NCBI GenBank assembly: GCA_035566015.1
Contig: DATMRS010000017.1
Location: 43,449 to 107,448, forward strand
From: Sphingomonadaceae bacterium
GTDB taxonomy: Bacteria > Pseudomonadota > Alphaproteobacteria > Sphingomonadales > Sphingomonadaceae
Length of the DNA stretch: 64,000 nucleotides
Direction: 5' to 3'
Of the stretch, positions 50,610 through 63,702 are shown piece after piece; the stretch's first letter is position 1, and the number at the start of each line of letters is the position of its first letter. A program made the position numbers and the translations under genes. The notes under the pieces are model-generated. The model searched no databases, was not told the DNA's origin, and worked only from the letters and a program-made list of their open reading frames with translations.

Positions 50610-50685
50610 GCCCAGGTAGCTCAGTTGGTAGAGCACGTGACTGAAAATCACGGTGTCGGCGGTTCGATTCCGTCCCTGGGCACCA
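50610..50685 (+). tRNA. tRNA-Phe (anticodon GAA)
   Basis: GCCCAGGTAGCTCAGTTGGTAGAGCACGTGACTGAAAATCACGGTGTCGGCGGTTCGATTCCGTCCCTGGGCACCA. Near-identical architecture to E. coli tRNA-Phe. Anticodon loop CTGAAAA. Confidence 0.93.
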
Positions 50686-50786
50686 TCCTTCCGTTCAGCA
50701 GCATCCGCCACCATCCTTGAAACCCTAGGTATTCTGCGGTATTTCACCTTTGTAGCGTTCGCAGACGTTCGATTGCGTTCGCTCAC

Positions 50787-50857
50787 ATACCCCCAATCTC
50801 GGGGGTGTTTTTGGGGGTATATCGCTGGGGTATCCTTCAAACGGGCAAAATACCCCC
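50787..50857. repeat. cluster of five GGGGGT(A/G)T motifs (both orientations) between tRNA-Phe and int
   Basis: ATACCCCC 50787-50794, GGGGGTGT 50801-50808, GGGGGTAT 50813-50820, GGGGTAT 50827-50833, ATACCCCC 50850-50857. Confidence 0.8.
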
Positions 50858-50868
50858 AGCTACGGGGC

Positions 50869-52119
50869 ATGGGCATGGCGCTCACCGATATAGCTGTTCG
50901 CACCGCGAAGCCGGGCGATAAGCCTTACAAGCTGTTTGATGGCGGCGGGCTGCACGTTGCCGTCACCCCGGCCGGAGGGAAACTCTGGCGGCTCAAATAC
51001 CGCCTTGCGGGCAAGGAAAAGCTGCTCTCGCTGGGAGCCTATCCGGCAACGTCACTATCTGCCGCTCGCAAGGCCGCCGATGCCGCCCGCGTCGATATGG
51101 CGGCGGGCGTCGATCCCTCGCTGGAGAAGCGCCGCGCCAAGGCCAAGGCCATACAAGGCGCTGGCGACACGTTCGCGGCCATTGCGGCGGAATATATCGC
51201 CAAGCGCAAGCGCGACGGGGATCGGCCCTATTCGCCTGCCACGGCGGCCAAGGTCGAATGGTTAGCCGCGCAGTTGACGCCTGCCATCGGCACCATCCCC
51301 GTTGCGTCGATCGAACCGAGCGACATTCTGGCGGCCCTGCGCAAGCTGGAGCGCAAGGGAAATCTGGAAACAGCGCGGCGATGCCTGCAATTCGCTTCGC
51401 AAGTGCTGCGCTACGCCGTCGCCACCGCGCGCCTCGCCAGCGATCCCAGCCGCGACTTGAAGGGCGCTCTTACCGCGCCGCGCGTGAAGCACCATGCCGC
51501 GATCATCGAGCCGGCGAAGCTGGGCGGCTTGCTCCGCGCCATTGACGGCTATCAGGGCGACGCCGTGACGCGGCTGGCGCTCCAGCTCGCGCCCCATCTA
51601 TTCGTCCGCCCCGGCGAACTGCGGCAGGCCCGTTGGGAAGAACTGAACCTGGCGGCGGCGACTTGGATGATCCCGGCGGAGAAAATGAAGATGCGCCGCC
51701 CCCATGCCGTCCCGTTATCCCGGCAAGCGCTTGCCATTCTTGACGCTCTACGGGCGATCACGGGCGGCGAGGAAGGCTATCGCGGCTATGTGTTCCCCTC
51801 GCTGCGGACGCGCCAGCGGCCGATGAGCGAGAACACGCTCAACGCGGCGCTGCGGCGGCTCGGCTATTCCAGCGACGAAATGACAGCGCACGGCTTCCGG
51901 GCGACGGCTTCCACGCTGTTGAACGAAAGCGGCAAATGGAGCGTCGATGCGATCGAACGCGCGCTGGCGCACGGCGACAGCGACGCGGTGCGCGCCGCCT
52001 ACCATCGCGGGGCGCACTGGAAAGAGCGCGTGGCGATGGCCCAATGGTGGAGCGATTATCTCGACACCCTGCGCAAGGGCGCGGACATTGTGCCGTTTCC
52101 CGGCCGGGAGGTGGGATAG
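50869..52119 (+). CDS. int: tyrosine-type site-specific integrase, P4/CP4-57-like (DUF4102 N-domain)
   Basis: In-frame part of ORF 50653..52119 from MGMALTDIAVRTAKPGDKPYKLFDGGGLHVAVTPAGGKLWRLKYRLAGKEKLLSLGAYP. C-terminal ...HGFRATAST...ALAHGDSDAVRAAYHRG catalytic region. Confidence 0.92.
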   Translation: MGMALTDIAVRTAKPGDKPYKLFDGGGLHVAVTPAGGKLWRLKYRLAGKEKLLSLGAYPATSLSAARKAADAARVDMAAGVDPSLEKRRAKAKAIQGAGDTFAAIAAEYIAKRKRDGDRPYSPATAAKVEWLAAQLTPAIGTIPVASIEPSDILAALRKLERKGNLETARRCLQFASQVLRYAVATARLASDPSRDLKGALTAPRVKHHAAIIEPAKLGGLLRAIDGYQGDAVTRLALQLAPHLFVRPGELRQARWEELNLAAATWMIPAEKMKMRRPHAVPLSRQALAILDALRAITGGEEGYRGYVFPSLRTRQRPMSENTLNAALRRLGYSSDEMTAHGFRATASTLLNESGKWSVDAIERALAHGDSDAVRAAYHRGAHWKERVAMAQWWSDYLDTLRKGADIVPFPGREVG

Positions 52120-52483
52120 AGTTTCACCGGACTCTCGGTCCGATGGAAGCGGGCTGGCGACAGGATAGCCCCACGAGGCTGGCCCTGCCACATTCGGGGC
52201 GCTTGGTGGGCGTCCAGCCTAGGCCGCGCCACCATCGACAATCCTATTTCGGCTGATCCCTTGACCCGCTTCACCGCCACCCCTGTCAACTGCTCGACGC
52301 GCTGCTAGCGACAGCCGCCGCGCGCGGACTGGAGGCGACGAAATGACGCTCAGAACCACACCTATTCTTCTTTAATTCTCTTAATAATATCAGTATTATA
52401 TAGGCACAATCAGTACCCGTTTTTGCGTGTTTTGCAGCCTCCGAAATGATAGAAGTTTGAGCTGTTTCTCGGAGGTTAGCACG

Positions 52484-53170
52484 ATGTCTCCAATCCCGAA
52501 TCGTCGCCATTTTCTCGCTGGTGGATTCGCGGCGCTTTACGCCTGCGGCGGGTTTAGCTCGCTTCATACGGCTCTCGCCAGACCGGTGCTCTTGCGTTCC
52601 TTCGCCGGGAACCGGACCGCTTCAAGCTTCGCTTCCTGCCTATTCCGGTACGAAGATGTCATGCCCAACGCCTTGGTCAGCGCCATTGAAACCGAGCTTA
52701 GCCATATTGTTGTGCAGCACGACAGTGAGGCGGAGGAGCGCCGAAGCGCCGAATTCTTCGCCTGGCTCACGGTCCGCGTGATCGCGCCGGCTTATCTACG
52801 GCGCGCCGGGTATGACCAGTTGGCGGCAGATTGCGAAAATCAGTCCGATTTGCGGGACGAAGCGCGCCCTTCGGCTACGGCACAACACACCATCGGCAAG
52901 CAATATGCCTACTCCCTGACTCCTCGACTCGCGAGCTTCGCTTATGGCGCGAGCGCCCACGCCTCGACAGCGACGTTCTATGCCGGCCATGAGGACATCG
53001 AAACCGTTATCGAGACGGGCCATTATTGCGCCCTCGCGCTGCTCGAAGGCTTCTCTTACGAAGACGCCTCGCCGGCCGACGCGGCGCAAATCTGGGCCTT
53101 TGCCGTGCGGGCGATCAACGCGGATCTCCAATTGAGTCAGGCAGATATGCCCGGCATGGTCTACGGCTGA
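52484..53170 (+). CDS. hypothetical protein with twin-arginine (Tat)-like signal peptide
   Basis: In-frame part of ORF 52427..53170 from MSPIPNRRHFLAGGFAALYACGGFSSLHTALA. GGAGG SD 8 nt upstream. No family recognised. Preceded by a locally AT-rich promoter-like patch. Confidence 0.6.
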   Translation: MSPIPNRRHFLAGGFAALYACGGFSSLHTALARPVLLRSFAGNRTASSFASCLFRYEDVMPNALVSAIETELSHIVVQHDSEAEERRSAEFFAWLTVRVIAPAYLRRAGYDQLAADCENQSDLRDEARPSATAQHTIGKQYAYSLTPRLASFAYGASAHASTATFYAGHEDIETVIETGHYCALALLEGFSYEDASPADAAQIWAFAVRAINADLQLSQADMPGMVYG

Positions 53171-53406
53171 ACGTGCCGGCCTGATCACGTCGGGCCGAAG
53201 CTCCTACGCGATGCGCGCCGCCTACCTCCACGGGCCACATTAGAAATAGCGCATCGCGGTGGTGCGGTGACCATCCCGACATGCTGTGAACGGAGGCGAA
53301 GGTTGCGCCGCTACAGGGCGAGCCTTGGCGGCATCCCCGGCTGGCGTTAAGTCTTGGGTGAAGGCGGGGGTCATGCCCGGCTCTAACGCTTTGCTCTGGG
53401 GGGTAA

Positions 53407-56400
53407 ATGTCCACGCCACTTCGCCGATTGCTTGCCCAATATCGGGCGGCATCCCGTACCGAACGCGAGAAGGGGACGTATTTCGAGCGGTTGGCGGTGG
53501 CCTTCGTCAAGCACGATCCGGGCATGGTGCAGGAATATGAGGATGCCTGGCTGTTCTCCGATTGGGCGAAGGCGCACCGGCTGGACGGGCGGGATATTGG
53601 CATTGATGCCGTCGCTAAAATCCGGGGCGAGGATAGCTTTTGCGCGATCCAGTGCAAATTCTATGCGGAGGGGTATCGCATCCAGAAAGGCGATATCGAC
53701 AGTTTTCTTAGCTCATCACAGACCAAGCATTTTTCCCGTGGCCTGATCATCGAAACGACTGGCGCGCCGTGGAGCGTCAATGCCACAGCGTTGCTGGACG
53801 ACCTGAATGTCACCACGCTTGATCTGGAGCGGCTTGAGCAGAGCCCGATTGATTGGGAGGCTTGGTTTCAGCGCGATGAAATCAAAGTCGCCCCGCCCAA
53901 AGTGTTGCGAGAGCACCAGCGTGACGCCCTCGCAGCCGTTCGGGAGGGGCTTGCGGAGGCCGATCGCGGCAAGCTGATCATGGCGTGCGGCACGGGCAAG
54001 ACGTTCACCAGCCTGAAAATCGCCGAGGGACAGGTTGGCGCGGGCGGCACCGTGCTGGTGCTGGTGCCGTCGCTGGCGTTGATGAACCAGACGATCCGCG
54101 AATGGACAATAGACAGCACGACGCCGCTGCGTTCCTATGCGGTGTGTTCCGATGTTCAGGTGGGCCGGCGGACGCGCGACAAGGATGACGTGGCGGAGGT
54201 TGACCTCCACGACCTGGACTATCCCGCCACAACCAACGCGGCCAAGCTGGCGTCCCGGTCCTCCTATCCGGCGGGCGACCGGATGACGGTGGTGTTTTCC
54301 ACCTATCAGTCGATTCAGGTCATAGCCGACGCGCAAAAGCGGTACGGCTTTCCCGAATTTGACCTGATCATCTGCGATGAGGCGCATCGCACGACCGGCG
54401 CGACCTTGGCGGGTGAAGACGAAAGCAATTTCGTCAAAATCCATGATCAGGACTTTATCGCAGGCCGGAAGCGCCTCTACATGACCGCCACGCCGCGCGT
54501 CTTTGGCGAGGCGGCCAAGGCCAAGGCGGGCGAGGTATCGGCCGCGCTGGCGTCGATGGACGACGAAGCGCTGTATGGCAAAACGCTGTTCACCCGTGGC
54601 TTTGGCTGGGCGGTGGAGCATGGCCTGCTGACCGATTACAAGGTGCTGGTGCTGGCCGTGGATGAAGCCATGGTGTCAACCGGCGTGCAGAACCGGCTGG
54701 CGGATGGCTCCAGCGAAATGAAGCTGGACGACGCGACCAAGATCATCGGGTGCTACAAGGCGCTGACCAAGAACGGCCAAAAGGGCGAGTTTGCCAACGA
54801 CGGCCAGCCGATGAAACGCGCTTTGGCGTTCTGCAAGGATATCGCGTCATCGAAGCTGATCCGGTCCGAATTTGCAGCGGTGGTCAGTGAATATCTGGCG
54901 TCCGATGAGGGCGAGGCAGCGATGGGCGACGCGGAGGCGCTGCTCTGCGAATTGCGCCATGTGGACGGCACGATGGGCGCGAAGGAACGCGGCGCGCATC
55001 TGGAATGGCTGAAGGAACAGCATGGCGAACGGATCGCGCGCATCCTAACCAACGCCCGCTGTCTGTCCGAAGGCGTGGACGTGCCCGCGCTCGACGCCAT
55101 CCTGTTCATGCACCCGCGCAAGAGCCAGATTGACGTGGTGCAGTCCGTCGGGCGGGTGATGCGTCGCGCGCCGGGCAAAACGATGGGCTATGTCATCCTG
55201 CCGATCGGCGTGCCCGCCGGGATGACCCCCGAACAGGCGCTGGCCGACAATGAGCGCTACCGCGTCATCTGGCAGATATTGAATGCGCTGCGCAGCCACG
55301 ATGAACGCTTCGATGCGATGATCAACAAAGCCGATCTTGGCGTGGACATAAGCGACCATATCGAGGTGATCGCCGTCAGCAACAAGCTACCGAGTGGCAA
55401 GACGACCACGCAGACCGGGCATATTGGCGCGGGCGGCGGTGGCGATGGCGAATCGTCTGAAGGCGACAGCACGCCCAAGGCCGCACCAGCCTTCCAGAAC
55501 GCCTTTGTGTTTGATGAATTTTCCAGGGCGATCATGGCGAAGATCGTCAAGAAATGCGGGCGGCGCGACTATTGGGAGGATTGGGCGGGCGACATTGCCA
55601 CAATCGCCCAGACCCATATCACCCGGATCAGCGCGCTGGTGCAAAAGCCGGGCACGTCCGAACGCGCGGCGTTCGAGGCTTTTCTGGCTGAAATCCGCGA
55701 TGACCTGAACGACAGCATCACCGAAGCCGACGCGATCGAAATGCTGGCGCAACATCTTATCACCCGCCCAGTGTTCGACGCGCTGTTCGAGGGGCACAGC
55801 TTCACCGGCAATAATCCGGTCTCGAAAGCCATGCAGACGGTGCTGGCGGCGCTCGACGAGCATCGGCTGGATAAGGAGGCGGACAGCCTCCAGCGCTTCT
55901 ATGACAGCGTGCAGCGGCGCGCGGCGGGCATTGATAATGCCGAGGCCAAGCAAAAGATCGTCGTCGAACTGTACGACAAGTTTTTCCGCAACGCCTTCCC
56001 CAAGATGACCGAGCGGCTGGGCATCGTTTATACACCGGTGGAGGTGGTGGACTTCATCCTCCATTCGGTGAACGAGGTGCTGCAATCCGAATTTGGACAG
56101 ACGCTGGGCAGCAAGGGCGTCCATATCCTTGATCCCTTCACCGGCACCGGCACCTTCATCACGCGGTTGCTGCAAACGGGCCTCATCAAGCCCGACGAGC
56201 TGGCCCACAAATACGCCCATGAAATCCACGCCAACGAGATCGTGCTGCTGGCCTATTACATCGCCGCGATCAATATCGAGGCGGTCTATCACGGCATCAT
56301 GGGTGGCAATTACGTGCCGTTCGAGGGCATCTGCCTGACGGACACGTTCCAGCTTTACGAGCAGGAACGCGATCTGATCGCACATCTGATGCCCGAAAAC

Positions 56401-57735
56401 AGCAACCGCCGCACCCGGCAAAAGGCGCTCGATATTCGCGTCATCATCGGCAACCCGCCGTATTCGGTGGGACAAGGCAGCGCGAACGATAATGCCGCCA
56501 ATGTCGATTATCCCCGATTGGACGGGCGAATCCGCGAAACCTATGCCAAGCGATCCAAGGCGACCAACAAGAATGCGCTCTATGACAGCTATATCCGCGC
56601 GATCCGCTGGGCCAGCGACCGGATCGGCGACGCGGGCGTGGTGGCCTATGTGTCCAACGCCGGATGGCTGGACGCCAACACCGCCGATGGCCTGCGGAAA
56701 TGTCTGGCGGATGAATTTGCCAGCATTCATGTGTTCCATTTGCGGGGCAATCAACGCACGTCGGGCGAGCGATCCCGGCGCGAAGGCGGCAAGATTTTTG
56801 GCAGCGGCAGCCGCACGCCCGTCGCCATCGCGCTGCTGGTCAAGAACCCCGCCGCCGCCGAACATGGCCAGATATATTTCCACGATATTGGCGATTATCT
56901 GACCCGCGAGGACAAGCTGGCGATCATCGCCCGGTTCAGCAGCATTGAAGGCATCGCGCGCGCGGGCGGCTGGCAGACGATCACCCCCGATGAGCATGGC
57001 GATTGGTTGGGGCAGCGTGACAAGGCGTTCGACGCCTTCCTGCCGATGGGGGACAAGGACAACAAATCGGGTGCGGTACTATTTGCGAACTATTCGAGAG
57101 GTATTGAAACTGGGCGCGATGCGTGGTGCTACAACGCTAGCCGCGAAACCGTGGCCCACAATATGCGCGCGATGATCGGCTTCTATAATGCTGAACTGGC
57201 GCGGTTCGACGCTGCCCACCCCCATGCCGACCGTAAGGCACGTGGCGACGCGGTGGACGGGTTTATCGACAATGACCCGACAAAGATCAGTTGGACTAGC
57301 AGCCTGAAAAGCGATTTGGCCAAAGGCGATGCGTTCACCTTTGAGGCATCAAACCTGACCCCCAGCCTCTATCGCCCCTTCACCCGCCAATGGCTCTACT
57401 ACACCGGCGATACCGTTCATCGTGTAGGCCAGATGCCGCGTATCTTTCCGATGGGCGAAGCTGCGACCAATCGGGTGATTATGGTGAAGGCACGTCCAGC
57501 CGAAGGCGGGCAGCTTGCCTTGATGGTGGACACCATCCCCGAACTGCAAACCGACGGCGGCACGCAATGTTTTCCTGAATACCTCTATGAGGCAGCCAAA
57601 GGTGTAGCCAGAACAGAACAGAACAGAACAGAACAGAACAGAACAATTATACCCTCCATTAACGGAGGAGCAAGAACAAAATCTGGTGATTTGCACGTCG
57701 GGCGGGGGGGCAGAAAGTCGCCTTCAGCGTATTGA
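53407..57735 (+). CDS. Type ISP-like restriction-modification enzyme: Mrr-like PD-(D/E)xK nuclease, SF2 helicase/translocase and gamma-class N6-adenine methyltransferase. Truncated before the C-terminal domain in the current frame.
   Basis: 1442-aa ORF. Nuclease: GIDAVAK...AIQCKFY. Helicase: ACGTGKT, ICDEAHRTTG, MTATPR, QSVGRVMR. MTase: DPFTGTGTF then IIGNPPYS. Then ...QCFPEYLYE, after which the frame runs through (CAGAA)7 into non-homologous sequence and stops. Confidence 0.88.
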   Translation: MSTPLRRLLAQYRAASRTEREKGTYFERLAVAFVKHDPGMVQEYEDAWLFSDWAKAHRLDGRDIGIDAVAKIRGEDSFCAIQCKFYAEGYRIQKGDIDSFLSSSQTKHFSRGLIIETTGAPWSVNATALLDDLNVTTLDLERLEQSPIDWEAWFQRDEIKVAPPKVLREHQRDALAAVREGLAEADRGKLIMACGTGKTFTSLKIAEGQVGAGGTVLVLVPSLALMNQTIREWTIDSTTPLRSYAVCSDVQVGRRTRDKDDVAEVDLHDLDYPATTNAAKLASRSSYPAGDRMTVVFSTYQSIQVIADAQKRYGFPEFDLIICDEAHRTTGATLAGEDESNFVKIHDQDFIAGRKRLYMTATPRVFGEAAKAKAGEVSAALASMDDEALYGKTLFTRGFGWAVEHGLLTDYKVLVLAVDEAMVSTGVQNRLADGSSEMKLDDATKIIGCYKALTKNGQKGEFANDGQPMKRALAFCKDIASSKLIRSEFAAVVSEYLASDEGEAAMGDAEALLCELRHVDGTMGAKERGAHLEWLKEQHGERIARILTNARCLSEGVDVPALDAILFMHPRKSQIDVVQSVGRVMRRAPGKTMGYVILPIGVPAGMTPEQALADNERYRVIWQILNALRSHDERFDAMINKADLGVDISDHIEVIAVSNKLPSGKTTTQTGHIGAGGGGDGESSEGDSTPKAAPAFQNAFVFDEFSRAIMAKIVKKCGRRDYWEDWAGDIATIAQTHITRISALVQKPGTSERAAFEAFLAEIRDDLNDSITEADAIEMLAQHLITRPVFDALFEGHSFTGNNPVSKAMQTVLAALDEHRLDKEADSLQRFYDSVQRRAAGIDNAEAKQKIVVELYDKFFRNAFPKMTERLGIVYTPVEVVDFILHSVNEVLQSEFGQTLGSKGVHILDPFTGTGTFITRLLQTGLIKPDELAHKYAHEIHANEIVLLAYYIAAINIEAVYHGIMGGNYVPFEGICLTDTFQLYEQERDLIAHLMPENSNRRTRQKALDIRVIIGNPPYSVGQGSANDNAANVDYPRLDGRIRETYAKRSKATNKNALYDSYIRAIRWASDRIGDAGVVAYVSNAGWLDANTADGLRKCLADEFASIHVFHLRGNQRTSGERSRREGGKIFGSGSRTPVAIALLVKNPAAAEHGQIYFHDIGDYLTREDKLAIIARFSSIEGIARAGGWQTITPDEHGDWLGQRDKAFDAFLPMGDKDNKSGAVLFANYSRGIETGRDAWCYNASRETVAHNMRAMIGFYNAELARFDAAHPHADRKARGDAVDGFIDNDPTKISWTSSLKSDLAKGDAFTFEASNLTPSLYRPFTRQWLYYTGDTVHRVGQMPRIFPMGEAATNRVIMVKARPAEGGQLALMVDTIPELQTDGGTQCFPEYLYEAAKGVARTEQNRTEQNRTIIPSINGGARTKSGDLHVGRGGRKSPSAY

Positions 57736-58525
57736 TGAGCAACGCCGTACCGAGCCTCCACATGGTGGATATCGAGGGCAGCCAATGCTTCCCGATGTTT
57801 CTCTACGAAACGGAGGGCGGGCAATGAGCGATACGCAAGCCAGCCTCTTCGAGCAGGATTCGCCTCAGCCCCGAATCGTGCGCCGCGACGGCATTACCGA
57901 CGAAGGGCTGGCCCATTTCCAGGCGGCCTATCCCGAAGAGGCGATCAGCAAGAAAGACCTGTTCTACTACATCTATGGCCTACTCCATTCAGAGGACTAT
58001 CGCGCTCGTTTCGCCGACAATCTCTCAAAGCAATTACCGCGCATTCCCCGCGTGAAAACCGCTGCTGATTTCCGGGCCTTTTCCAAGTCAGGGCGTGCGC
58101 TGGCGGGATTGCATGTGAACTACGAACAGGTGGAGCCTTACCCCGTTACAATCGCTGAGGGTGATTTTCGGCTGGCCAATATCCCCGACCCGGTGAAATT
58201 CTACCGCGTCGAGAAAATGAAATTTGGCGGCAAGCGTCCGAATCTCGACAAAACGACCGTCACCTACAACACCAACATCACCATGACCGGTATCCCGCTG
58301 GAAGCCTATGAGTATGTGGTGAACGGCAAGCCCGCGCTGGAATGGGTGATGGAGCGCCAGTGCGTGAAGACCGACAAGGCCAGCGGCATCGTCAACGATG
58401 CCAATCGCTATGCCAACGAAACCGTGGGCGACCCCGCCTACCCCCTACTGCTGTTCCAACGGGTGATCACGGTAAGCTTGGAAACGATGAAAATCGTGCG
58501 GGCGTTGCCGAGGCTGGAGATTTAA
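57608..58525 (+). CDS. C-terminal (Type ISP C-domain-like) segment of the R-M enzyme in the +1-shifted frame. Also translatable on its own from ATG 57824.
   Basis: This frame is open from 57608, just after a TAG at 57605-57607, through the repeat to the stop at 58525. From 57824 it reads MSDTQASLFEQ...RRDGITDEGLAHFQAAYPEE..ISKKDLFYYIYGLLHSEDYRARFADNLSKQLPRIPRVKTAADFRAF...GRALAGLHVNYE..., which is the usual continuation after the QCFP..LY.. motif. GGAGGG lies 7 nt before ATG 57824. Confidence 0.75.
   Translation, partial: PEQNRTEQNRTEQLYPPLTEEQEQNLVICTSGGGAESRLQRIDEQRRTEPPHGGYRGQPMLPDVSLRNGGRAMSDTQASLFEQDSPQPRIVRRDGITDEGLAHFQAAYPEEAISKKDLFYYIYGLLHSEDYRARFADNLSKQLPRIPRVKTAADFRAFSKSGRALAGLHVNYEQVEPYPVTIAEGDFRLANIPDPVKFYRVEKMKFGGKRPNLDKTTVTYNTNITMTGIPLEAYEYVVNGKPALEWVMERQCVKTDKASGIVNDANRYANETVGDPAYPLLLFQRVITVSLETMKIVRALPRLEI
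57609..57645 (+). repeat. perfect pentanucleotide microsatellite (CAGAA)7 plus CA inside the R-M coding sequence
   Basis: Read directly: ca gaaca x7 at 57609-57645. Translated RTEQNRTEQNRT in the upstream frame. Confidence 0.97.
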
Positions 58526-58701
58526 GGCCTGTCGCGCGCGCGACTAGCATCTTCCGCGCGATATCTCTGTTGTCCGACACGAGATCAACGGCTGGAAATG
58601 GCCGGGCTTCACCCTTTGCTATCGATGGGCGCTGGCAGAGTTCGCTAGCGTCCGCTATGTTCCGCATATGTACCAGACGTTCGCTTGGAAGGGGCGAGCC
58701 A

Positions 58702-59541
58702 ATGACAGGATATGCAGGCATGGACGATAATGGAAGCGCGGCGGCGGCTCTTGCGATCATTCGAGAATGGGAATGGGAGTACGAGGATTTTGATGGCTTC
58801 GGTACGACGCCGAAATGGCTTTCTCTGAACGAAGCGATGAACTCGCTTGCGTTCGCGGGTCATGCTGATCCGGCTCGCGCGTTCCTTAGGCTCCTGGCCG
58901 ATGGTGCGCTGGTGACGCGGGGCAAATACCAGTGGCGGGCTTTTCGAGCGGGTAACCATTTCGACGGAGAGGGAAGCGGGGGCATTCCACCGGCACGCTG
59001 GCTTGTAATCGTCGATTCCACTCCTTTTGACATGTTTGATCTGCCAAAGCTTGGGTTATCAAACATGGAGCCAGGTGATTGGGACTGGCGGAATGGTTGC
59101 TGCACCGTCGCGGCGGCCTCTGACGGCGATCCAGCCAAATGGTGGGAAACCGGATATGCCGAGGAATGGTTTTCCGCTTGGGATATCGAAGTGCATTGCC
59201 CGTCAGTCGATTTCCCGAAGAGCGATAGTGCCCCTGCTGTCGAGAATGACGCTTGCGAGCCTGCCGAACCTCTGGTGCCCATCATTGGTCATAGCAAAGG
59301 CCGTCCGCCCAAATACGATTGGGAAGGCGCGTTAGCCCATGTCACGGCTGTAGCGAACACGCCGGACGGCCTGGAAACCGGCCCTGGCGCACAGGCTGCA
59401 ATTGAGCGCTTGATGGCCGACCATTTCACGCGGACCAGCAATGATGGAAGCGGCCCTTGCGAGTCCGAAATCCGCAAGCGGGCGAGCCGTGTGATGAAGG
59501 CAATCGAGGCGTTGAAGCCGTCGCTTTCCAAGGTCGCGTAA
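58702..59541 (+). CDS. hypothetical protein (Trp/acidic-rich N-part, conserved-looking GRPPKYDW C-part)
   Basis: In-frame part of ORF 58342..59541 from MTGYAGMDDNG. GGAAGGGG SD upstream. No family recognised. Confidence 0.6.
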   Translation: MTGYAGMDDNGSAAAALAIIREWEWEYEDFDGFGTTPKWLSLNEAMNSLAFAGHADPARAFLRLLADGALVTRGKYQWRAFRAGNHFDGEGSGGIPPARWLVIVDSTPFDMFDLPKLGLSNMEPGDWDWRNGCCTVAAASDGDPAKWWETGYAEEWFSAWDIEVHCPSVDFPKSDSAPAVENDACEPAEPLVPIIGHSKGRPPKYDWEGALAHVTAVANTPDGLETGPGAQAAIERLMADHFTRTSNDGSGPCESEIRKRASRVMKAIEALKPSLSKVA

Positions 59542-59706
59542 ACGGCGCTTGGCGGGAAGGCCGATAAATCCCGCCGCGCATGATAATCAGCCTTTCCCGG
59601 CCCTTATGGGCCTTTATCGGCGGACAACCGCAGCCATCCGCCAGCATCCTTTCGCATACCGCCGAGGCATTTCGCCACGGCGCAATCGCGAAGGAAACGG
59701 CCAATC

Positions 59707-59892
59707 ATGGCAATTCAGGAACAGGGTCCGCCTCTCGCCTACAGTATTAAGGAGGCTTGTCGCGTTTCGTCATTGGGGCGCACCCGCCTTTATGCCCTTA
59801 TCAACGAGGGCCGGCTCGAAAGCCGCAAGATCGGCAAGCGCACACTGATCCCCGCCGTAAGCTTGCGCCGCCTGATCGAGGGGGAGGCGTGA
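59707..59892 (+). CDS. AlpA/MerR-type helix-turn-helix DNA-binding protein (excisionase/regulator of integrative elements)
   Basis: 61 aa. YSIKEACRVSSLGRTRLYALINEGRLESRKIGKRTLIPAVSLRRLIEG. AGGAA SD upstream. Confidence 0.8.
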   Translation: MAIQEQGPPLAYSIKEACRVSSLGRTRLYALINEGRLESRKIGKRTLIPAVSLRRLIEGEA

Positions 59893-59895
59893 GCC

Positions 59896-60078
59896 ATGGC
59901 CCAGACATACGAAGCCCCGCACATTGGCGGGGCGTCGCGGAACAACTGTGGTGGCTGCTTCCGTGCTTTTTCTACCCCGCGCGTCTTGCAGACGCAATTC
60001 CTGATCGCGGCCTGCCAGGTCCGCCCCGAACTGGCGGCGATGCTGGCTGCGTTCGTCTTCGGGGGAGGCGGGGCATGA
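59896..60078 (+). CDS. small hypothetical protein (60 aa)
   Basis: The ORF begins 4 nt after the alpA-like stop and ends in an ATGA overlap with the primase start, so it is positioned for translational coupling. No homology recognised. Confidence 0.35.
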   Translation: MAQTYEAPHIGGASRNNCGGCFRAFSTPRVLQTQFLIAACQVRPELAAMLAAFVFGGGGA

Positions 60079-60998
60079 TAGACCTTCACGCCATCCGCGC
60101 TGCCAATCCGCTGCCTTCGATTGTGGGGGCAACAGTGAAGCTCCAGCGCGCGGGCCGCGAGTATAAGGCTTGCTGCCCCTTTCATCCCGACAGGTCGCCC
60201 TCCTTCACCATCTTTGCGGATGGCGAGCGCTTCCATTGCTTCGGCTGCGGGGCATCCGGCGACGTGCTGGATTTTGTGCAGCGGGCGTATGCCGTGCGGC
60301 TACCCGAGGCGGCACGGATGCTCGGCGCGGGCGATATGCCCCGGCGGCCCATGCCTTCGAGCCCCGAGGCTTCGGACGGCGCCGACACCCGCGCGAAGCG
60401 TGCGCGCGCCCTGGCGATCTGGCACCGGGCCAAGTCGGCGGCCGGGACGCTGGCAGAGGCCTATTTGCGCTTCCGGGGCATCCTTCCCCCCTATCCGCCT
60501 GATTTGCGGTTCCTGCGCCTTCGCTGTGGCAATCTGGGGGCGTTGCCGTGCCTTGTCGCTGCGGTGCGCGACGTGGCGGGCACGGTGATCGGCATTCAGC
60601 GGATCTGGCTTGCCGGCGATGGGCAGGGAAAGGCGGCCATTACCACCCCCAAACGATCGCTGGGCCAGGTGAAGGGCGGCGCAATCCGGCTCGGCAAGCT
60701 GGACGGCACGGGCTGGCTGACCGTCTGTGAAGGCCCCGAAGATGGCCTGTCGCTGCGGAACATGCTGGGCGGCCCGGTTTGGGTGGCGGCGGGGGCGACG
60801 TTCCTGCCCGCGATGCAGTTTCCCCCCGAGGTGCGAACGATCGTGATCGGGGCGGACAACGACCCGGCCGGGTGCAGGGCGGCAGAGGATGCGGCGCAGG
60901 CCTATGCCGGGCGCGGGCTATCCGTCCGCATCATCCGGCCCCTTTCTGGCTGCAAGGACTTCAACGACGAATTGAGGGGGCGCGGCAATGGCTGCTAA
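60075..60998 (+). CDS. DNA primase: CHC2 zinc finger plus Toprim-like domain
   Basis: In-frame part of ORF 59757..60998 from MIDLHAIRAANPLPSIVG. CCPFHPDRSPSFTIFADGERFHCFGCGASGDVLDF zinc finger. ...VCEGPEDGLSL...GADNDPAG Toprim-type acidic motifs. Confidence 0.85.
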   Translation: MIDLHAIRAANPLPSIVGATVKLQRAGREYKACCPFHPDRSPSFTIFADGERFHCFGCGASGDVLDFVQRAYAVRLPEAARMLGAGDMPRRPMPSSPEASDGADTRAKRARALAIWHRAKSAAGTLAEAYLRFRGILPPYPPDLRFLRLRCGNLGALPCLVAAVRDVAGTVIGIQRIWLAGDGQGKAAITTPKRSLGQVKGGAIRLGKLDGTGWLTVCEGPEDGLSLRNMLGGPVWVAAGATFLPAMQFPPEVRTIVIGADNDPAGCRAAEDAAQAYAGRGLSVRIIRPLSGCKDFNDELRGRGNGC

Positions 60999-62520
60999 CC
61001 CGAGCATACAAGAGCGGCTGGCAGCGGCGGACCCGTTTGCCGGTTGGCCCGATCCGATTCCGCTGCGGGACGAACTACCGCCGGTGCTGGCCTTCCCACC
61101 CGATCTGTTGCCGAGCCAATTGCGCGGCTGGGTGCTCGACATTGCCGAGCGCATGAATTGCCCGGTTGATCTGGTGGCCATCCCGGCCATGGTTTCGGCC
61201 GGGGCGCTTATCGGGCGGCGCATCGGCATTCGACCCCAGCGACGCACCACATGGCTGGAAGTGGGCAATCTGTGGGGGTGCGTCGTCGCCCGGCCCGGCT
61301 GCATGAAAAGCCCGGCGGCAGCCGAAGCGCTTGCCCCGATCCGGGGACTGGAAGCCAAAGCGGCGGAATGGAACAAGGAGGCCGCCGCCCGGTTCGAGGT
61401 AGCCGAGGCCGTGCACAAGCTGGAGCGCGGCGACGCCGACAAGGCCGCGCGAAAGCGGCTGAAAGACGAGGGCGCGGACTCCGCGCGGAAGGTGCTGGCG
61501 GCGCTTGTGACGCCCGAGCCGCCATCGGAGCGGCGGTACTTCACAAGCGACGCCACGGCGGAAAAGCTGGGCGAGATATGCGCGGCCAATCCGGATGGCA
61601 TCCTGGTTCATCGCGACGAACTGGTGCCGCTCTTCACCGACCTGGACAGCCCCGAAAAGGCATCGGCGCGTGGATTCTTCCTGACCGGCTGGGGTGGGCA
61701 GGAAGGCTACACCTTCGATCGCATCATGCGCGGCACCGTGCGCGTGCCAGCGGTCAACCTGTCGGTATTCGGGACGACCCAGCCGAGCCGCATCGCCGCC
61801 TATATGCGCGACAGCATCCGGCGATTCGATGATGGCATGGTCCAGCGTTTGCAGTTGCTGGCCTGGCCGGATTTCACGGGCGAATTTCGAGAGGTGGACC
61901 GCTACCCGGACAGCGAGGCGCGGCGGCTGGCGCATGAATGCTATGCCGATCTGGCCGGTCTCAACCTGCACGAAATCGGCGCGCAACGGGATGAAGTCGA
62001 CGGTCTGGGAGCGGTGCCCTTCCTGCGCTTTGCCGATGATGCGCAGGATATTTTCACCGAATGGCGGGCAGCGCTTGAAGCGGAATTGCGAGGCCAGGAT
62101 TTGGCCCCGGCGCTGGTGGCCCATTTGTCCAAATATCGCGGGCTGATCCCCCGGCTGGCCCTAATCTGCCATCTTGCCAACAATGCCTACGGCCCGGTTT
62201 CGATTGAGGCGGTACGGCAGGCTTTGGGCTGGGCCGATTATCTCCGATCCCATGCCCGGCGCGCCTATGCCTCGACCATGATCGATAATGCCGAGGCGGC
62301 ACGGGCGATCTGGCGGCGCGTCCACAGAGGTGATCTGCCCCAGCCGTTCACCGCGCGCGACATTCGCCAAAAGGGATGGTCTGGCCTGACAGAGCAAAGC
62401 CGGATCGAGGCCGGCCTGGAAGCGCTTACCGATGCCTACCGCCTCCGGGCTGAAAAGGTCGATACCGGGGGGCGGCCGTCAACACTCTATCGCGCCAATC
62501 CCAAGGCCATGCACGCATGA
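60988..62520 (+). CDS. DUF3987 (YfjI-like) protein, putative replicative helicase partner of the primase
   Basis: 510 aa. ...WPDPIPL...P.FP.DLLP..LR.WV..IAE..., ...ERRYFTSDATAEKLGEI...GILVHRDEL..., typical of DUF3987 proteins of integrative elements. Confidence 0.75.
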   Translation: MAANPSIQERLAAADPFAGWPDPIPLRDELPPVLAFPPDLLPSQLRGWVLDIAERMNCPVDLVAIPAMVSAGALIGRRIGIRPQRRTTWLEVGNLWGCVVARPGCMKSPAAAEALAPIRGLEAKAAEWNKEAAARFEVAEAVHKLERGDADKAARKRLKDEGADSARKVLAALVTPEPPSERRYFTSDATAEKLGEICAANPDGILVHRDELVPLFTDLDSPEKASARGFFLTGWGGQEGYTFDRIMRGTVRVPAVNLSVFGTTQPSRIAAYMRDSIRRFDDGMVQRLQLLAWPDFTGEFREVDRYPDSEARRLAHECYADLAGLNLHEIGAQRDEVDGLGAVPFLRFADDAQDIFTEWRAALEAELRGQDLAPALVAHLSKYRGLIPRLALICHLANNAYGPVSIEAVRQALGWADYLRSHARRAYASTMIDNAEAARAIWRRVHRGDLPQPFTARDIRQKGWSGLTEQSRIEAGLEALTDAYRLRAEKVDTGGRPSTLYRANPKAMHA

Positions 62521-62558
62521 ACGCCCCCGACAGGAACCCCCGAAACCAACAAAAGCCC

Positions 62559-62576
62559 TTTTGGGGGTTTTGGGGG
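62559..62576 (+). repeat. tandem TTTTGGGGG x2
   Basis: cttttgggggttttgggggc read directly in the DUF3987-downstream intergenic region. Shares the G5 core with the island-end motifs. Confidence 0.7.
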
Positions 62577-62616
62577 CAACCCTCCCCGGCACTTTCCCGA
62601 AAATCGAGGTGAACCC

Positions 62617-63312
62617 ATGACGGCACGCAAGAGCAAGGCGAAGCCCCCAGTGGACAAGGCAACGCGCCCGCCAAAAACCCCAATCATTATTGAGGAAGGC
62701 GAAGAGACAGCGGACGCCATCACGCGTGCAACGATCGCCCCGGCGCTACGGCACGGACAGCTCGCCCTGGAATTGGCCAAGCCATTTTTTAGCGGGATGC
62801 CCAAGGATCAACAGCCCGCGCTGGCGCACTTCGTAAGCGAGATCGCGACGCGGGCCAGCGAAGCCGGCGGGGGCGATATGGCGCTGGCCAGCCGGCTACT
62901 CGCCGCGCAGGCCATGACGCTGGATGGCATCTTCACCGAATGCGCCCGGCGATCGGCGCTCAATATGGGCGAATATATCAACGCCTCCGAACGCTATATG
63001 CGCCTGGCCCTCAAGGCGCAGGCCAATTCCCGTGCGACGATCGAAGCGCTGGCGAAGCTGCATAGCCCGCGCGAACAGACGGTGCGGCACGTTCACGTCA
63101 ACGAAGGCGGCCAAGCCGTCATTGCCGATGAATTTCACCATCACGCGGGGGGCGCAGAAAATGCACAATCGACCGAACAACCCCATGCAACCCGAACCGG
63201 CGCGATTGGCGGCCGCCCCGCGCTGTCTGGCCCGGACCCGCTCGGGGAAGCCTTGTCGCTCCCCGGCGGTGAAGGGGCGCAAGCGGTGCCGAATGCACGG
63301 CGGCAAGGGTAG
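62617..63312 (+). CDS. hypothetical protein of the island backbone
   Basis: 231-aa ORF with GAGGTG SD. The helical part ...RLLAAQAMTLDGIFTECARRSALNMGEYINASERYMRLALKAQANSRATIEALAKLHSPREQTV is of a kind I recall next to primase/DUF3987 modules. The family name is unknown to me. Confidence 0.55.
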   Translation: MTARKSKAKPPVDKATRPPKTPIIIEEGEETADAITRATIAPALRHGQLALELAKPFFSGMPKDQQPALAHFVSEIATRASEAGGGDMALASRLLAAQAMTLDGIFTECARRSALNMGEYINASERYMRLALKAQANSRATIEALAKLHSPREQTVRHVHVNEGGQAVIADEFHHHAGGAENAQSTEQPHATRTGAIGGRPALSGPDPLGEALSLPGGEGAQAVPNARRQG

Positions 63313-63439
63313 CGGCGCGCCCAAAGCCAACCGCAACGCCTGGAAACACGGCGCGAGGGCCGCCAGCACGCGCGATACGCTCGCGTTGATCCGTGCACTT
63401 GGCGAAATGCTCGACGATAGCAGGGGAGAAGCCTGCTAG
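63161..63439 (+). CDS. small basic protein with CRxxxxxGxxCRMHGG...GAPKxNxNAxKHG motif
   Basis: In-frame part of ORF 62924..63439 from MHNRPNNPMQ. It overlaps the previous ORF by 152 nt in another frame. The motif recurs in small proteins of alphaproteobacterial mobile elements (recollection, unverified). Confidence 0.45.
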   Translation: MHNRPNNPMQPEPARLAAAPRCLARTRSGKPCRSPAVKGRKRCRMHGGKGSGAPKANRNAWKHGARAASTRDTLALIRALGEMLDDSRGEAC

Positions 63440-63677
63440 CCGATCCGTGGCCATGCACCCCTCCGGGGGGGCTTCAAAGTTCAGCGCTCGCGAAGCGGAC
63501 ACCGCAGTGAACCTGTGTTAAATCGCTAAGTCAGTTTTTGTCAGATTTTTGCACGCGCGACCCCATGAAAGGCGGACGGACGCATGGAGGCGGTATCGCG
63601 CCAGCCCCCTCGCATTGGCGCGAAAGGCGGCCTGAACCGCGCATCCATCATTCATCCCCGTTCGCCACTATCCAGCA

Positions 63678-63702
63678 TTTTTGGGGGTATTTTTGGGGGT
63701 AT
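63678..63702 (+). repeat. tandem TTTT(T)GGGGGTAT x2 at the distal end of the island
   Basis: catttttgggggtatttttgggggtattctg read directly. Same GGGGGTAT core as the int-proximal cluster. Confidence 0.85.

Follow-up and report, generated by a model that had tools for sequence, protein, structure and literature searches.

Why a Type ISP restriction-modification (R-M) gene should encode one short segment of its target recognition domain (TRD) twice, in different reading frames and on either side of a pentanucleotide repeat, is the question raised by the locus studied here. The gene lies in a stretch of 64,000 nucleotides (nt) from a Sphingomonadaceae bacterium (contig DATMRS010000017.1, positions 43,449 to 107,448), which we call the window and whose own numbering is used throughout. 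An initial annotation had interpreted the second copy, at 57690-57827, as the remnant of an older allele, left out of frame when the 5' part of the gene recombined onto the 3' end of a different one. We attribute it instead to a conserved second recognition-loop module, part of a cassette in which a repeat would switch the reading frame, and give this assignment, as opposed to a recombination scar, a probability of about 0.78.

The upstream open reading frame (ORF), ORF A, extends from 53407 to 57735 in frame 1 (1442 amino acids, aa; like the cassette features below on the forward strand) and is truncated in the present repeat phase. Its Pfam matches comprise an N-terminal Mrr-family nuclease (Mrr_cat_2, residues 35-157, E 1.7e-34), a superfamily 2 (SF2) helicase-like ATPase (ResIII, E 1e-22, and Helicase_C) with its coupler (ISP_coupler, E 1.4e-51), a gamma-class N6-adenine methyltransferase (N6_Mtase and Eco57I matches, with FTGTGTF and GNPPYS in the translation, that is, FxGxG before NPPY) and the N-terminal half of the TRD (Type_ISP_C positions 2-164). 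The homologous part of ORF A ends ...GGQLALMVDTIPELQTDGGTQCFPEYLYE / ...IPELQTDGGTQCFPEYLYE (QCFPEYLYE) at 57591, together with copy 1 of the duplicated module (NRVIMVKARPAEGGQLALMVDTIPELQTDGGTQCFPEYLYE, 57469-57591, frame 1). Between the two copies, at 57609-57645, lies a (CAGAA)7.4 repeat with 100% matches, to which we assign the role of frame selector. On the far side, ORF2 (57824-58525, frame 2, 233 aa, MSDTQASLFEQ...DGITDEGL) matches Type_ISP_C positions 158-336 (E 4e-63) and contains the conserved TRD helices and the 'guide' subdomain; alignments to PDB structures back the assignment of TRD core and guide. Frame 0 at 57690-57827 reads FARRAGGQKVAFSVLMSNAVPSLHMVDIEGSQCFPMFLYETEGGQ followed by a stop, a 45-aa peptide which alone matches Type_ISP_C positions 119-157 (E 6.9e-7). 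Covered by ORF A and again by this peptide, these positions are therefore encoded twice.

The three-frame layout, with ORF A, the second copy in frame 0 and a frame-2 continuation from 57824, was thus as first described, and so was the presence of a second, diverged version of the QCFP..LYE segment. At about 40% protein identity the two copies are, as had been claimed, too different for a recent tandem duplication. The extent of copy 2 had to be revised: its frame-0 part was correctly recognised, but it does not start at 57690, since LYPPLTEEQEQNLVICTSGGG (57647-57709, frame 2) is its 5' part, and homologs read LYPTLTEEQERNLVICTSxGGQKV... in a single frame. The 3' part (GGQKVAFSVLMSNAVPSLHMVDIEGSQCFPMFLYETEGGQ and a stop, 57705-57827, frame 0), which is the former 'relic', holds the alternative Loop VI PSLHMVDIEGS. 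Copy 2 is split between frames 2 and 0 at a run of seven G (G7, 57704-57710), one G above an intact copy. Its stop codon TGA (57825-57827) overlaps the ATG of ORF2 (57824-57826) in an ATGA preceded by a GGAGGG Shine-Dalgarno (SD) motif with a 7-nt spacer (57812-57827 in total). With 5 or 8 repeat units, the stop-free frame-2 stretch between the repeat and ORF2 (57608-57823) would fuse the latter to ORF A. As sequenced, the functions are not all in one polypeptide as expected of a Type ISP enzyme, with ORF A stopping at 57735 and the guide in another frame; by homology the assignment to the Type ISP family stands, and the single-polypeptide state would be conditional on 5 or 8 units.

The cassette is not peculiar to this gene. 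Many close protein homologs were retrieved with the C-terminal part of ORF A as query, and they fall into three length classes. In proteins of about 1475-1483 aa, ...QCFPEYLYE is followed by five residues, the repeat-encoded peptide and then copy 2, which is read in frame to its stop as LYPTLTEEQERNLVICTSxGGQKVPFTVLMSNAIPSLHMADIEGSQCFPMFLYETEEGQ. Those of about 1704-1733 aa read copy 2 in another frame (..HGGYRGQPMLPDVSLRNGGRAMSD..) and continue into the C-terminal part, and those of about 1406-1452 aa stop just past the repeat. In ordinary enzymes with a single copy (about 1635 aa), the one module is followed by QCFPRYLYD and a linker of about 25 aa. Scanning genome and metagenome contigs with an alignment of the copy-2 peptides gave 50 loci, distributed over Alphaproteobacteria (Sphingomonas, Sphingobium, Altererythrobacter, Micropepsaceae, Gluconacetobacter, Komagataeibacter and Acetobacter), Betaproteobacteria (Methylophilus, Methylotenera and Neisseria) and Gammaproteobacteria (Methylococcales, Xanthomonas, Rhodanobacter and Acinetobacter). 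The position of the repeat is constant across loci and its unit varies (CAGAA, AGCAC, AGCAG, AGGAC, CGGAT, GCGA, CGAA, AGCAGCG, AACAGAGC and others); the unit length, determined for 45 loci, was 5 nt in 28, 4 nt in 14, 7 nt in two and 8 nt in one, and never a multiple of three. The copy-2 stop overlapped the start codon of ORF2 in 26 of 26 loci (ATGA in 20, TAATG in five, GTGA in one), ORF2 was always in the -1 frame relative to copy 2, and an SD-like GGAG or GAGG preceded the ORF2 start in 25 of the 26, mostly with a spacer of 7 nt. ORF2 was called as a separate 233-aa gene in two loci, L009 and L034.

Some further traits of the family were recorded alongside. All repeat units found are free of stops in each of the three frames and specify hydrophilic peptides there (TEQNR, AQHST, AEQSR, AERSG, DRTGQ, ASER, ERTN and so on). 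Copy 1 of cassette-bearing genes always ends in QCF[PS]E[YH]xYE or QCFPQYLYE and copy 2 always in QCFPMFLY[ED], and single-copy enzymes carry QCFP[RL]YLY. A few loci depart from the common form. L017 (Sphingobium sp. Leaf26, 2440-2690) is a locked, alpha-like variant in which the repeat has collapsed to two units and a 1-nt deletion brings most of copy 2 into frame with ORF A; the ATGA overlap is kept while the SD motif is lost. L033 lacks the repeat and is fixed in the fused state, and L018 (Sinirhodobacter) has only a fragment of copy 2, without ORF2. Public annotation names members of the family 'DEAD/DEAH box helicase', 'damage-inducible protein', 'predicted helicase' or 'partial', and treats split, fused and truncated forms of one allele as different proteins. 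Such genes should not be dismissed as pseudogenes or 'DEAD/DEAH helicases'.

Selection acts on two of the reading frames. Ratios of nonsynonymous to synonymous differences (pN/pS) were obtained from Nei-Gojobori counts for pairs of sequences, covering 33 codons of copy 2 in three clades. Read in its own frame, copy 2 evolves under purifying selection, as genuine coding sequence does, with pN/pS values of 0.15, 0.095 and 0.24 in the three clades against 1.4-5.5 in the other two frames. For copy 1 the value was 0.16, and the ORF2 stretch, which served as positive control, gave 0.087 and 0.057. Between the repeat and the stop of copy 2, neither the frame of copy 2 (alpha) nor that of ORF2 (beta) contains a stop in any of the 22 other repeat-bearing loci that were tested; the third frame (gamma) is closed in all 22, usually by stops 3-5 codons past the repeat. 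When the synonymous codons of copy 2 were resampled with each locus's own codon usage, the probability of an open beta frame was 0.008-0.43 per locus, with a mean of 0.11, and below 0.08 in each of several deeply diverged clades of lower GC content. An open beta frame is thus far commoner among the loci than this resampling would lead one to expect. Given the purifying selection in the alpha frame and the selected openness of the beta frame, the copy-2 stretch is dual-coding: one frame specifies a protein module, another a linker without stops. A further candidate constraint, namely that selection keeps the two QCFP..LYE blocks dissimilar as DNA, was rejected, exact runs of 11 nt being shared between them in some loci.

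The length of the repeat varies in nature. L034, a metagenome contig of 110,253 nt from ENA, could be aligned to the window along 7,251 nt without any mismatch; the one gap, of 5 nt, reflects (CAGAA)6 in L034 against (CAGAA)7 in the window. Within clusters of 90% identity, where states of identical alleles were compared, one allele occurred in all three states (P0005, alpha, 1479 aa; P0133, beta, 1717 aa; P0132, gamma, 1421 aa) with repeat number as the sole difference, and P0015 (alpha) and P0127 (beta) were likewise identical except for repeat number. The readable loci comprised 14 in the alpha, 8 in the beta and 13 in the gamma state. As in phase-variable loci based on simple sequence repeats, then, a perfect non-triplet repeat lies inside the frame and its number differs between otherwise identical sequences. 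In Acetobacter pasteurianus the (aggac)n repeat AP-TR04 within the 'DNA helicase' gene APA01-18740 proved hypermutable in experiments, its length changing among isolates and during culture, and its length variants have C-termini of 283, 58 and 8 aa (Azuma et al. 2009, PMC2761278). It is the one homolog with reported experimental hypermutability. That gene is homologous to the one described here and belongs to the same cassette clade (AGGAC repeats are also found in L021, L023 and L026-L028); its three C-termini match the beta, alpha and gamma outcomes.

These observations can be accommodated by the following scheme. The canonical cassette would consist of the N-terminal part of the TRD with module 1 (QCFPEYLYE), a short linker, a perfect repeat of a 4, 5, 7 or 8-nt unit, and module 2 (QCFPMFLYETE..), whose stop overlaps the start of the 233-aa ORF2, itself in the -1 frame behind GGAGG. 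Slipped-strand changes of repeat number would set the downstream reading frame to one of three states. In the alpha state module 2 would be in frame, translation would stop behind it and ORF2 would be made by coupled re-initiation, resulting in a two-piece enzyme. In the beta state translation would pass through the module 2 stretch in the -1 frame, turning it into a disordered linker that fuses ORF A to ORF2, resulting in a one-piece enzyme using module 1, and in the gamma state stop codons shortly past the repeat would switch the enzyme off. Separate, coupled translation of ORF2 is probable from the arrangement of the overlapping codons, and both the alpha and the beta forms are presumed to be active. 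Programmed frameshifting from copy 2 into ORF2 was considered and rejected, there being no slippery site; the universal ATGA or TAATG overlap with its SD motif fits termination-reinitiation instead.

In the window itself the cassette deviates from this scheme. At the start of GGQKV other loci have GGCGGGGG[C/A/G]CAG with five or six G, and the window has seven. The additional G leaves LYPPLTEEQEQNLVICTSGGG in frame 2 and the remainder of copy 2 in frame 0 with two stops upstream. Since the parts of module 2 are in different frames, it cannot be expressed by repeat slippage alone, and in the window copy 2 serves only as a linker-coding stretch. The outcomes were computed in silico for combinations of G run and repeat number. 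With G7, 7 units (the window) yield a truncated product of 1442 aa, 6 units (L034) a truncated product of 1416 aa, and 5 or 8 units fused products of 1702 or 1707 aa. With G6 the three canonical states are restored, 7 units giving the fused, 8 the split and 6 the truncated form. The amino-acid sequence of copy 2 is otherwise intact, from which the G insertion appears to be recent or reversible.

Alignment to solved structures identified the duplicated module. Copy 1 aligns to residues ~1170-1220 of the 5ffj chain, which correspond to LlaGI ~1334-1384 because the crystallised protein is a deletion mutant without residues 2-165, and also to LlaBIII ~1325-1375; ORF2 aligns to the rest of the solved structures, and the close homolog P0007 aligns with LlaBIII 26-1576. 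This stretch of LlaGI contains the conserved core beta-hairpin (1347-1358) and Loop VI (1365-1374), and Loop VI reads target position +3, through H1368, G1372 and Q1373 in LlaGI and N1360 in LlaBIII (Kulkarni et al. 2016, PMC4872093). By alignment, ORF2 corresponds to the conserved helices I1395-I1428 and the guide, the latter taking no part in target reading (PMC4872093). Loop VI corresponds to the hypervariable stretch before QCFP, IPELQTDGGT in copy 1 and VPSLHMVDIEGS in copy 2, and in the column of LlaGI H1368 and LlaBIII N1360 copy 1 has Q and copy 2 has H.

The module is also exchanged between alleles. P0007, a single-copy enzyme, is 88.7% identical to the N-terminal TRD part of the window, yet carries a module of the copy-2 type, 69% identical to copy 2 and 38% to copy 1. 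Between the loci L019 and L025, ORF2 is 95% and copy 1 93% identical but copy 2 only 70%, whereas between L019 and L020 copy 2 is 95.5% and copy 1 64% identical. In these comparisons the hairpin and Loop VI together behave as a natural exchange unit. The fused form was examined with an AlphaFold2 (AF2) model of the last 501 aa of a fused protein found in nature (Sphingomonas sp. BGYR3, L010), which had a mean predicted local distance difference test score (pLDDT) of 78.8 and a predicted template modelling score (pTM) of 0.76. Confidence was high for the guide and for the TRD core with its module 1, and residues 205-274, a 70-residue linker made of the repeat peptide and the beta reading of copy 2, were disordered (pLDDT 32-46). 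The top structural matches of the model were LlaGI (E 8e-29), LlaBIII and DrdV. With a confident TRD and guide and matches to known enzymes, the fused form looks, as modelled, like a viable enzyme with a long flexible linker.

Could the second copy nevertheless be the non-functional footprint of a single module replacement, some 45 codons of the former allele having stayed behind at an illegitimate joint as a linker in the wrong frame? Two diverged copies do exist, TRD mosaicism does occur in the family, and in the window a frameshift interrupts copy 2, which shares its frame with neither neighbour. A one-off event in this gene is, however, difficult to reconcile with the same layout in 50 loci of three classes, with a repeat at the joint of nearly all of them whose units differ, and with the conserved stop/start overlap and its SD motif. 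Nor does decay agree with the purifying selection on copy 2 in its own frame; it is only in this window that the copy is locally disabled, by one added G. Tandem QCFP..LY motifs in one frame, which the initial annotation itself had named as evidence that would speak against a chimera, are present in P0004, P0005, P0015, P0021, P0042, P0097 and P0105. The second, silent Type ISP copy that it had suggested as a recombination donor was not found either: with ORF A, ORF2 and the 'relic' as tblastn queries, the entire 3.44-Mb assembly yielded only the locus itself. The same negative result leaves a recombinational specificity shufflon without its second gene copy; the two modules are direct copies, each in a translatable frame in relatives, and the adjacent integrase is the P4-type integrase of the surrounding island, next to tRNA-Phe. 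The footprint could be revived by the recent spread of a single dead cassette, against which the synonymous divergence (pS) of 0.4-0.7 speaks. We consider this origin very improbable. Besides the two diverged versions of the segment, two elements of the initial annotation hold: parts of the TRD are exchanged between alleles, as seen in the mosaic P0007 and in the independent swapping of copy 1 and copy 2 among close relatives, and the second copy is an out-of-frame linker in the full-length product, though not as the leftover of a decaying allele. Even less credible is an assembly or sequencing artefact in which both repeat count and G7 are erroneous and the true gene is one continuous or canonical ORF. 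Errors are frequent in homopolymers and microsatellites, and the repeat count differs between the two assemblies; yet G7 is found in both, which otherwise match fully, the offset of copy 2 and ORF2 is universal, and the staggered two-copy layout persists with the errors removed, as in all relatives.

For the function of the switch, two possibilities have to be compared. Slippage may select which of two hairpin and Loop VI modules (three in Neisseria-like loci) completes the TRD, so that the enzyme would alternate between specificities differing at +3, in addition to being off; this we hold tentatively, at somewhat short of even odds. The modules lie in staggered frames, each stop overlapping the next start, they have different residues at the position aligned with LlaGI H1368 and LlaBIII N1360, and each is exchanged independently between relatives. 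Nine loci with two modules past the repeat (Neisseria sp., an Acinetobacter metagenome-assembled genome and related metagenome contigs, mostly with CGAA repeats) extend this pattern. In these, the stop of module 2a overlaps the ATG that opens module 2b (MNMTICITG...) and the stop of 2b overlaps the start of ORF2, which places three elements in three successive frames. All three frames are productive and each was seen in metagenomes: ORF A ends after module 1 of 2 in L059 and L060 and after module 2 of 2 in L031, L052, L057 and L058, and is fused in L054. In the +3-reading column, module 1 has N or E, and the two modules that follow it have H and Q, in that order. Alternatively, the cassette may perform plain ON/OFF (or ON/ON/OFF) phase variation, with module 1 always in the TRD core, the alpha and beta forms recognising the same site, and module 2 kept only to carry ribosomes to the coupled ORF2 start or to dock the separate ORF2 polypeptide. 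Every product includes module 1, which directly adjoins the core of the TRD and would be the first part to fold; a normal fold with module 1 is predicted for the fused form; the ATGA coupling and SD motif are conserved; and phase-variable fused or truncated R-M enzymes are known, Cj0031 (PMC4889913) among them. A mere spacer or coupling ORF would, however, need neither family-like amino-acid conservation (pN/pS 0.095-0.24) nor a Loop VI swapped among close relatives independently of copy 1 and ORF2, nor a second extra module in the third frame, with three different +3-reading residues. We regard plain phase variation of this kind as a serious alternative, slightly less probable than the choice between modules.

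Several points weigh against a frame-switched second module, whichever of these functions it has. The alpha, beta and gamma states were read from sequence, and module 1 is still part of the alpha product. An AF2 model of the alpha chain (L009, without ORF2) reached a pLDDT of only 63, with both modules below 65, and the docking module could not be read from it. The loci are phylogenetically related, and the trials of frame openness are therefore not independent. In the window module 2 cannot be expressed in frame and thus locally resembles a pseudogenised piece. Finally, the G7 run and the repeat count are known from assemblies, and both assemblies may derive from related data.

The three-module loci (L031:2350-2770 and L033:2280-2640, as well as L052, L054 and L057-L061) also contain module 2b as what can be a free-standing 46-aa ORF (MNMTICITG...). 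At 57662-57688 of the window, where copy 2 begins, the conserved LTEEQE(Q/R/K)N is encoded as ACGGAGGAGCAAGA.., with an SD-like GGAGGAG about 13 nt before CTGGTG, and this region resembles the end of a module (LYETEEGQ and a stop) followed by the start of one (MN[LM][VT]IC). This end-plus-start appearance suggests that the cassette arose from a tandem module array and that an internal start may exist at the beginning of copy 2.

Of the systems described so far, LlaGI and LlaBIII (PDB 5FFJ and 4XQK; PMC4872093) have the same order of Mrr nuclease, SF2 translocase, coupler, gamma-class N6-adenine methylase, and TRD core with guide, and the segment duplicated here aligns to their core hairpin and Loop VI. 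They differ in being single uninterrupted polypeptides with one Loop VI, without an internal repeat, a second module or a separate C-terminal ORF. In the report on A. pasteurianus (PMC2761278) the gene was not recognised as Type ISP, the duplicated module, the coupled ORF and the two-frame selection were not noted, and the meaning of the repeat was left open. Phase-variable Type III mod and Type I hsdS or hsdM genes (phasevarions; PMC5909438, PMC7383803) likewise have a non-triplet repeat in an R-M gene, with numbers that vary between strains, but there the repeat is usually near the 5' end and acts as an ON/OFF switch; the published surveys deal with Type I and Type III, not Type ISP. Switching of specificity in Type I systems relies on inverted hsdS copies and recombinases, not on frame choice. 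Cj0031, a Type IIG enzyme of Campylobacter jejuni, is a single-chain R-M protein in which a hypermutable tract within the coding region decides between a full-length and a truncated product (Anjum et al. 2016, PMC4889913). In the homopolymer switch of the NgoAV Type I hsdS (Adamczyk-Poplawska et al. 2011, cited in PMC5953494), a change of repeat length within the specificity gene reportedly alters specificity, beyond a mere off state. It acts by truncation of HsdS in a Type I multi-subunit system, not by a choice among loops in staggered frames. Cj0031 reportedly has a poly-G tract and two states, ON and OFF, without an alternative recognition module or a coupled downstream ORF. Beyond the repeat report in A. 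pasteurianus, no description of a phase-variable Type ISP system was found in the searchable literature; the closest precedents are that report, Cj0031 and the NgoAV hsdS switch.

Most known phase-variable R-M systems come from host-adapted pathogens and belong to Types I, III and IIG, whereas the element described here would be a conserved mobile contingency cassette in a Type ISP gene, hosted by environmental and commensal Proteobacteria. Its design is unusual, a dual-coding stretch (selected module in one frame, selected stop-free linker in the other) being wired to a downstream ORF whose translation is probably coupled. If the alternative loops do change specificity, the cassette would offer a compact, recombinase-free way of diversifying restriction targets and methylation patterns, and would be a natural guide to the small piece of the TRD that can be swapped for re-targeting Type ISP enzymes.

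An integrative island (50610-63700 of the window) carries the Type ISP gene as cargo, together with tRNA-Phe (50610-50685), a P4-type integrase (within 50653-52119) and, downstream of the R-M gene, a CHC2/Toprim primase (59757-60998) and a DUF3987 protein (60988-62520). The same integrase and primase neighbours are found beside homologs (L009 and the contig of P0006), and a location as island cargo with shared neighbours fits the spread of the cassette across classes. Two ORFs that flank the R-M gene inside the island, 52427-53170 and 58342-59541, had no Pfam match; at the places of these two ORFs, the gene calls of L034 give products of 228 aa and 273 aa or more.

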